Virus record (IMG/VR): IMGVR_UViG_2698536552_000012 | Strand: one strand, 5' to 3' | Length of the DNA stretch: 6,339 nucleotides | From: a virus | Lineage: Duplodnaviria > Heunggongvirae > Uroviricota > Caudoviricetes | In this document: piece by piece, positions 2,454 to 2,968 of the stretch | Position numbering within the stretch: position 1 is the first letter of the stretch | Layout: the number at the start of each line of letters is the position of its first letter | Notes under the pieces: generated by a model | Database searches by the model: none | Told to the model about the DNA's origin: nothing | The model's input: only the letters and a program-made list of their open reading frames with translations | Position numbers and translations under genes: made by a program

Positions 2454-2742
2454 GTGCTGATTGGCTATGTAAGGGTATCAACAAATGACCAGAATACAGA
2501 CCTGCAACGAAACGCTCTTGTTTGTGCAGGATATGAACAAATATTTGAAGATAAATTAAGCGGAACAAGGACAGGCCGACCTGGATTAAAACGTGCTTTA
2601 AAGCGCCTTCAAAAAGGTGACGCACTGGTTGTCTGAAAACTGGACTGACTGGGGCACTGTATGCGGCATCTTGTCGTGCTGGTGGTGGAAGCCTAGAAAA
2701 AGTATCGGGTGTTGCTGAACCGTGTTGATACATCAACTGCAC
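2454..2742 (+). pseudogene. pin: Serine recombinase, DNA invertase of the Pin/Gin/Hin family: N-terminal part with three in-frame stop codons, running into an N-run
   Basis: GTG at 2454 with GGGAG 9 nt upstream. Translation VLIGYVRVSTNDQNTDLQRNALVCAGYEQIFEDKLSGTRTGRPGLKRALKRLQKGDALVV is near-identical to invertase N-termini, with the catalytic Ser in the RVSTNDQ motif. Stops follow at 2634-2636 (TGA where Trp is expected in VVWKLDRLG), 2646-2648 (TGA for Arg) and 2694-2696 (TAG), with residual similarity continuing (KLD-LG...M.HL..LV.E...VDTS). A full invertase needs about 550 bp; only 289 bp are present before the N-run. Confidence 0.7.
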
Positions 2743-2968
2743 NNNNNNNNNNNNNNNNNNNNNNNNNNNNNNNNNNNNNNNNNNNNNNNNNNNNNNNNNN
2801 NNNNNNNNNNNNNNNNNNNNNNNNNNNNNNNNNNNNNNNNNNNNNNNNNNNNNNNNNNNNNNNNNNNNNNNNNNNNNNNNNNNNNNNNNNNNNNNNNNNN
2901 NNNNNNNNNNNNNNNNNNNNNNNNNNNNNNNNNNNNNNNNNNNNNNNNNNNNNNNNNNNNNNNNNNNN
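2743..2968. other. N-run (226 nt) covering the junction between the invertase remnant and the ipaH-family gene
   Basis: Literal n characters. Confidence 1.

Follow-up and report, generated by a model that had tools for sequence, protein, structure and literature searches.

An old invertase–tfa pseudogene joint in a Shigella sonnei prophage remnant, and ipaH probably set beside it by scaffolding

Results

The locus is the tail-fibre end of a defective prophage

The window, by which we mean the whole 6,339-base stretch of DNA analysed here, is the tail-fibre end of a defective prophage. Its segments are 99.9–100% identical to S. sonnei, represented among the compared loci and contigs (referred to by L numbers throughout) by S. 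sonnei ATCC 29930 (L021, CP026802.1), and ompW′ and trpA are the next genes in relatives. The locus belongs to a lambdoid remnant lying next to ompW/trpA in Shigella sonnei, and its tail-fibre genes are truncated. A sister scaffold, L055, encodes a protein recorded under S. sonnei. Reading rightwards from a gix-like crossover site, the window presents an invertase frame, an N-run, the 5′ end of an ipaH gene, a second N-run, a methyltransferase gene, a third N-run, a tfa 3′ fragment, and then the Rha and ash genes. The features on which the analysis rests are the following, with position 1 as the first base of the window.

Left part of the window, before tfa: tail-fibre C-terminal fragment
376–913, plus strand: tfa
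942–1475, minus strand: tfa′
Between tfa′ and the gix-like site: inverted tail-fibre fragment
2374–2399, plus strand: gix/pix-like 26-bp crossover site, TTCTCGTAAACCGAGGTTTTAGATAA, bounding the invertible tail-fibre segment on the right
2454–2633, plus strand: invertase stump, codons 1–60, Mu gin-like, GTG start, catalytic-serine motif YVRVSTNDQ kept
2634–2689, plus strand: invertase stump, codons 61–79, with TGA at 2634–2636 and 2646–2648; 2659–2689 pinE-like
2683–2689, plus strand: invertase–tfa joint, a 7-base overlap TGGTGGA with one mismatch to each parent
2683–2742, plus strand: lambda-type tfa 3′-terminal fragment, translated as ...EA, stop, KKYRVLLNRVDTSTA
2743–2968: N-run of 226 N, a scaffold gap whose implied junction is probably false
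2969–3529, minus strand: ipaHe 5′ end, ATG at 3529, 187 codons comprising the N-terminal region and leucine-rich repeats
3530–3676, minus strand: ipaH upstream region, running unbroken into the ipaH piece in L001, L030 and L032
3648–3664, minus strand: MxiE box GTATCGTTTTTTTACAG, perfect, 119 nt upstream of the ATG at 3529
3918–4438, minus strand: 5′ 521 bases of a class I SAM-dependent methyltransferase gene (RefSeq product name), start at 4438
4640–4685, plus strand: terminal part of another tfa 3′ fragment, TAPDIEWPANPVRE followed by a stop
5705–5792, minus strand: C4 antisense RNA (Rfam, 75.9 bits), beside the ash/Rha genes
5816–5890, minus strand: isrK (Rfam, 72.2 bits), beside the ash/Rha genes
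6230–6339: IS1 end of 110 bases, right edge of the window

The C4 RNA and isrK by ash/Rha constitute a P1/P7-type immunity cassette of the prophage remnant, and Rfam returned no match in or around 2454–2968. The left end of the window borders an IS3-family element in L005. Both ends thus lie at IS boundaries, within a few bases of the ends of the S. sonnei drafts L032 and L055, and this layout suggests that the window may be an entire short-read scaffold bounded by IS repeats.

The invertase frame is a mosaic stump joined to the 3′ end of tfa

The frame that opens with the GTG at 2454 runs through 60 sense codons, translated as VLIGYVRVSTNDQ...GDALVV. As the original prediction had recognized, these codons are near-canonical for a Pin/Gin invertase: they agree with Mu gin, whose start is also GTG, at 175 of 180 nucleotides and 57 of 60 amino acids, and with e14 pinE at only 125 of 180 nucleotides. 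The 60-residue product matches PF00239 (Resolvase), and the active-site serine motif YxRVSTxxQ of Din-family invertases is present in the stump as VLIGYVRVSTNDQ. The three in-frame stops that had been noted are equally real. The two TGAs at 2634–2636 and 2646–2648 are codons 61 and 65, standing where the references have TGG (gin and pinE) and CGC/CGG, respectively, and the third stop is a TAG at 2694–2696.

Past codon 60 the alignment departs from what had been proposed. The frame aligns to both pinE and gin free of gaps as far as 2689 (codon 79), where homology to pinE ends at pinE nt 236, so the apparent small deletion does not exist; it and the TAG fall in tfa-derived sequence, and the likeness between ‘NRVDTSTA’ and ‘DSIDTSSP’ is coincidental. 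Nor does conservation break at codon 60, the changes lying instead at ∼2656 and at 2683–2689. From 2454 to ∼2655 the sequence is 91–95% identical to the invertases of Mu, D108, SfMu and P88-type phages, and these matches stop at 2655, while 2659–2689 has one mismatch to pinE versus 14 to Mu gin. Judged by these alignments, the invertase part is itself a mosaic, gin-like over approximately its first 200 nt and pinE-like over approximately its last 30 nt, with the switch at ∼2656.

Because the product would end at residue 60, with most of the catalytic domain and all of the DNA-binding domain gone, no recombinase can be made from this gene. A complete catalytic domain with its E-helix (∼residues 1–135) is absent from the open frame, since homology ends at codon 79, and the C-terminal helix-turn-helix DNA-binding domain is absent as well, the DNA past 2689 being tfa-derived. 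The stump is therefore the non-functional 5′ part of a tail-fibre invertase pseudogene of Gin/Pin type (Din family, small serine recombinase).

What follows the stump within the resolved sequence is tfa. The pinE alignment (E = 1e-40) stops at 2689, 54 bases ahead of the N-run, and the lambda tfa alignment (E = 9e-24) begins at 2683, with 57 of the 60 bases at 2683–2742 matching lambda tfa nt 488–547. The seven-base overlap with one mismatch to each parent points to an illegitimate, microhomology-level joint, and since the invertase and tfa parts happen to be in frame, the original prediction read straight through it. Aligning 2454–2742 with pinE/gin, as had been suggested, hence gives gin/pinE homology up to 2689 and lambda tfa beyond; the recombination boundary that had been surmised does exist, at 2683–2689 where invertase passes into tfa and not at codon 60.

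The tfa piece corresponds to approximately the last 32 codons of the gene and carries the TAG in place of a TGG, within the tfa-derived ‘EAWKKYRVLLNRVDTSTA’, so that a full-length tail-fibre-assembly ORF (Caudo_TAP, PF02413) is absent at 2683–2742. By comparison with relatives, the fragment runs ∼38 bases into the N-run and ends with PDIEWPTNPVRE and a stop. At the position of the TAG, L007 (OZ040035.1) has TGG, which makes this stop polymorphic and younger than both TGAs.

The truncated gene is old and widespread

We searched complete E. coli genomes with a 143-nt query that takes in the joint together with both TGAs. At a coverage of at least 80%, the joint is present in 538 of 5,426 genomes, and ∼3,900 more match the tfa end of the query only. 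In a protein-position collection, 7,443 indexed blocks contain exactly this 60-residue product. All 36 full-length copies that we fetched, from independent genomes including finished ones, contain the joint and both TGAs, and ipaH adjoins none of them. An exact-pattern scan of a species-representative genome collection returned 0 matches for either the joint or a 50-mer from the ipaH upstream region.

RefSeq (PGAP) already records both halves in E. coli 4/1-1, where the equivalent of the stump is a ‘recombinase family protein, incomplete, missing C-terminus’ pseudogene and the equivalent of 2697–2780 a ‘tail fiber assembly protein, missing N-terminus’ pseudogene. By this distribution, the joint and both TGAs are of old date and widely spread through E. 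coli as well as Shigella. The truncation predates the ipaH cargo of Shigella. The recombination boundary is thus real but old, ipaH-independent and already annotated. This overturns the view that the gene was truncated at an ipaH junction, since the joint lies upstream of the N-run and is found without ipaH in the 36 fetched loci.

The ipaH piece matches a module known from other loci

The 187 codons on the far side of the N-run are 99–100% identical to IpaHe (99% to IpaHe P0032). They include the N-terminal T3SS-type leucine-rich-repeat domain, for which PF12468 (LRR_TTSS) is recorded in the matching proteins, and the C-terminal NEL catalytic domain (PF14496) is absent from the resolved window sequence. 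The window thus holds 187 of 547 codons, the constant region of the family beginning near residue 232, and a gap of 226 bases, which can hold at most 75 more codons, is too short for the missing 360. We considered whether the 260-aa IpaH products (P0004) of ‘complete’ genomes could be real truncations that would fit the gap, and rejected this: L023–25 have N-runs in the locus and a gene whose translation departs from the query, and the other instances stop at contig ends.

The MxiE-box consensus has one match in the window, at 3648–3664, with 0 expected by chance. This perfect box gives the ipaH piece its predicted T3SS-activity-responsive promoter element, of the MxiE/IpgC-dependent type. MxiE boxes have been mentioned for ipaH genes, and chromosomal ipaH copies have been described as surrounded by prophages and pseudogenes (PMC9046306).

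Taken with its upstream region, the 708-base piece (2969–3676) is 99.6–100% identical to IpaHe loci in which ipaH is followed by a paralogous methyltransferase gene and a tfa fragment. We found this ipaHe–methyltransferase–tfa module at btsS/dinI (L001, L023–25, L071 and L073), at zinT (L026–29, L031, L066–70 and L072) and at bgl/IS110 (L030), each time occupying the tail-fibre end of its lambdoid or Mu-like remnant, beside DUF4376/tail-fibre genes and without an invertase. Separately, L056, beside argS, shares the ipaH 5′ end and upstream region and lacks the methyltransferase. From these matches, the ipaH piece of the window probably comes from another locus carrying the paralogous module. 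The ipaHe locus was not found in a complete S. sonnei genome, and the contigs of the full-length protein (P0166) have zinT and btsS contexts and are apparently non-S. sonnei.

Contiguous assemblies lead from the stump to a methyltransferase

Eight genomes or loci (L005, L013, L015–L019 and L039) match the window at 100.000% identity over 1–1904, 2156–2742, 3918–4478, 4640–5195 and 5447–6339, and have no counterpart to the ipaH piece at 2969–3676. The equivalents of 2742 and 3918 lie 240 bases apart in them, a stretch that takes in the tfa stop, a hairpin and, converging on them, the 3′ end of the methyltransferase gene. S. sonnei ATCC 29930 has the same arrangement of stump, 240 bases and methyltransferase. 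The ipaH piece occurs in none of the 17 viral-collection loci that have the joint, and across more than 40 loci, among them the genomes that match the trp-locus segments completely, no contiguous sequence places ipaH next to the stump. Every contiguous assembly reads from the joint through the tfa stop and the hairpin into the class I SAM methyltransferase gene, which is convergent.

The copies of the tfa end that flank the methyltransferase gene form direct repeats of ∼148 nt that are 89% identical (6230–6376 versus 7279–7426 in L005). Each consists of the tfa 3′ end plus the hairpin, at 2683–2742 and 4640–4757 of the window. By analogy with e14, where mcrA lies next to pinE, the methyltransferase gene flanked by these repeats is the true cargo of the locus. 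One locus, L048, apparently has a single tfa end and no methyltransferase, and would be an empty or deleted site.

The lengths of the N-runs offer a measure of how far the order across them can be trusted. Besides the 226 N at 2743–2968, the window has runs at 1905–2155, 3677–3917, 4479–4639 and 5196–5446, of 251, 241, 161 and 251 N, and the intervals they stand for measure 264, 316, 240 and 251 bases, respectively, in identical genomes. We therefore rejected the idea that the N-runs are length-preserving masks, three of the four checkable runs being off by 13, 75 and 79 bases, and distances across any N-run here are estimates only.

Two methyltransferase copies suggest how the scaffold was misjoined

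The methyltransferase gene exists in two copies, the A and B haplotypes, which differ at about 20 sites. The piece in the window, whose 3′ end is hidden in the N-run at 3677–3917, is pure A haplotype (G at 3986 and GGG at 4419/4428/4439) and is 100% identical to L005, L013 and L039; A is the stump-linked haplotype in genomes 100% identical to the window. Uninterrupted ipaH-linked copies instead have A at 3986 (B haplotype). An ipaH piece 100% identical to that of the window occurs in S. sonnei-type contigs (L030, L059 and L061–65) with a B-haplotype methyltransferase adjoining, pure B haplotype together with the identical ipaH piece being found in many such short-read contigs (L059, L061–65).

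A related scaffold displays what may have gone wrong. In L055, the contig of the stump locus runs into an A-type methyltransferase and ends at 4418, just before the A/B SNP cluster; there follow a single N, ipaH from codon 360 to its start, a patchwork methyltransferase (B,B,A,B,B,B,A) and then Rha. This layout is the failure mode of a collapsed two-copy repeat with both left neighbours laid in series. The same could have happened in the window: two near-identical methyltransferase copies would have collapsed in assembly, and the scaffolder would have strung the two competing left neighbours, stump and ipaH, one after the other. We infer that the junction of stump and ipaH is probably a draft-assembly misjoin.

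It would be the other way round if the scaffold were correct and an ipaHe 5′ fragment, or a whole gene with an underestimated gap, truly lay between the stump and the methyltransferase, having arrived by recombination between the repeated tfa-end/methyltransferase modules. The window itself has that order, and modules do recombine among Shigella lineages: L011, L043 and L046 have the stump with B-type SNPs, so that A/B linkage is not absolute across Shigella, and two independent short-read contigs, L032 and L058, tie ipaH and its methyltransferase to the Rha/ash side of the locus, the switch lying inside a 433-base SNP-free stretch. For that reason, the SNP haplotype of the methyltransferase, which we had weighed as absolute proof of misplacement, is weakened as an argument. 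Draft haplotypes are in fact of several kinds, single-switch (L032, L058), patchwork (L055) and flank-swapped (L043, L046 and L011). L032, L058 and L043, the last of which ties the stump to a B flank, may reflect genuine reciprocal recombination in some S. sonnei, assembler path switches or chimeras, or both. Even in these three, however, the stump leads to the tfa end and methyltransferase and never to ipaH. Against a correct scaffold also stand the lack of any contiguous stump–ipaH adjacency in more than 40 loci, the 226 bases that are too few for 360 remaining ipaH codons, the stump-linked haplotype of the window's methyltransferase with G at 3986, and the sister scaffold L055, which is plainly an artificial series join via a single N. 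We regard a correct scaffold as unlikely, though it has a small real chance. A bolder variant, in which an ipaHe module truly recombined in and the tfa-end/hairpin/methyltransferase repeats act as portable homology ‘handles’ that would move effector cargo between Shigella prophage remnants, we consider improbable.

The tail-fibre segment was inverted after its own invertase died

The gix-like site at 2374–2399 is unique in the window, where 0 matches are expected by chance and no partner is found, and it differs by three bases from the Mu gix at the annotated G-segment boundary. Relatives have the inverted partner site. Comparing orientations between L002–L004 on the one hand and L008, L012, L021, L022 and L041 on the other, we found flipped loci in which the inner half-sites, TTCCT/TTCTC, are exactly swapped, and identical pseudogene alleles occur in both segment orientations. 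The half-site swap and the identical dead alleles in both orientations indicate site-specific inversion after the segment's own invertase had died, presumably by another resident Din-family invertase acting in trans. Gin, Cin, Pin and Hin cross-complement one another, and Din-family invertase genes carry their Fis-dependent recombinational enhancer within the 5′ portion. Other invertases acting in trans may still use the orphan gix site and the gin-like 5′ region (enhancer area) as substrates, which would account for relatives having the segment in either orientation. In the window itself the left site was lost with the IS-truncated tail-fibre gene, which leaves the segment frozen.

These observations raise the question of whether the 60-codon ORF has been retained for a peptide or for a DNA function (enhancer plus gix), for example as a cis element for resident invertases. 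Both orientations do occur after gene death, and the copies have one synonymous variant in the 180 nt of the ORF, compared with four variable sites over the following 109 nt. Because the copies diverged very recently, however, their low diversity says little, and in S. sonnei the partner site is lost and the tail-fibre genes are truncated. Retention for a function is in our judgement very unlikely. The weaker version, that the gix site and enhancer of the dead invertase survive as cis substrates with which resident invertases still flip the segment, may hold.

Discussion

We consider it probable that the locus as a whole is an old invertase–tfa stump in an S. sonnei prophage remnant, with the methyltransferase as its true neighbour and ipaH misplaced by scaffolding. 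As in Mu (also D108, SfMu and P88-like phages), the first 180 nt are 97% identical to gin with its GTG start, a gix-like site lies ∼55 nt upstream, and on the left is an invertible segment made up of tfa and tail-fibre C-terminal genes in opposed orientation. Unlike the 193 codons of Mu gin, only 79 are left here, two of them nonsense; the last 30 nt of the stump are pinE-like, the host is a lambdoid remnant at ompW/trp and not a Mu genome, and the left crossover site has been lost in S. sonnei. The arrangement also resembles e14 of E. coli K-12, where an stf′/tfa invertible segment is followed by the invertase and then by an unrelated cargo gene, and 2659–2689 of the window is identical to pinE bar one base; pinE, in contrast, is intact at 184 aa and only 69% identical to the stump over the first 180 nt, and its cargo is McrA, whereas here it is a convergent class I SAM methyltransferase and neither McrA nor ipaH. 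Lambda Tfa (orf-194), a tail-fibre assembly protein, has its counterpart at 2683–2742 (95% to tfa nt 488–547), and the same 3′ end recurs beyond the methyltransferase, though here ∼32 last codons only, with an internal TAG, are fused behind an invertase stump. With the chromosomal ipaH islands (IpaHe) the ipaH piece shares 99–100% identity, a perfect MxiE box and a module seated in lambdoid or Mu-like remnants at their tail-fibre end, but it has 187 of the 547 codons, and its adjacency to the stump is found in no contiguous genome.

The original prediction had made the invertase locus the insertion point of the effector, so that an ipaH insertion would have cut off the invertase. In the window ipaH does lie across the N-run from the stump, and cargo does adjoin invertases, as mcrA adjoins pinE in e14. 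That analogy holds for the SAM methyltransferase and fails for ipaH, whose adjacency is contradicted by every contiguous assembly. The truncation at 2689 lies within resolved sequence and is joined to tfa, not ipaH; 538 complete E. coli genomes contain the joint, and ipaH adjoins none of the fetched copies; and ipaHe modules elsewhere lie by DUF4376/tail-fibre genes without an invertase. We give an effector insertion at this point hardly any chance of being correct. That the stops stem from errors in sequencing or assembly, with an intact invertase running on through the N-run, as a draft scaffold might lead one to suspect, is next to impossible, because the TGAs are in 36 of 36 copies, the 60-aa product is in 7,443 blocks, tfa follows 2689 and nothing of the invertase lies in the N-run.

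Under our preferred reading of an old stump with ipaH misplaced, the feature is already known, an annotated kind of pseudogene next to a probable scaffolding artefact. At their tail-fibre ends, cryptic prophages routinely harbour decayed Din-family invertases, scraps of tfa and moron cargo, and the stump carries little biological weight. In draft Shigella scaffolds, N-runs sit at multi-copy prophage and ipaH repeats, and gene order across them is untrustworthy, so that an apparent effector-insertion junction at such an N-run is no evidence for insertion. Two by-products bear on the biology of these remnants: the tail-fibre segment was flipped after its own invertase had died, and the ipaHe–methyltransferase module recurs at several chromosomal sites, every one of them in a prophage remnant, at its tail-fibre end.
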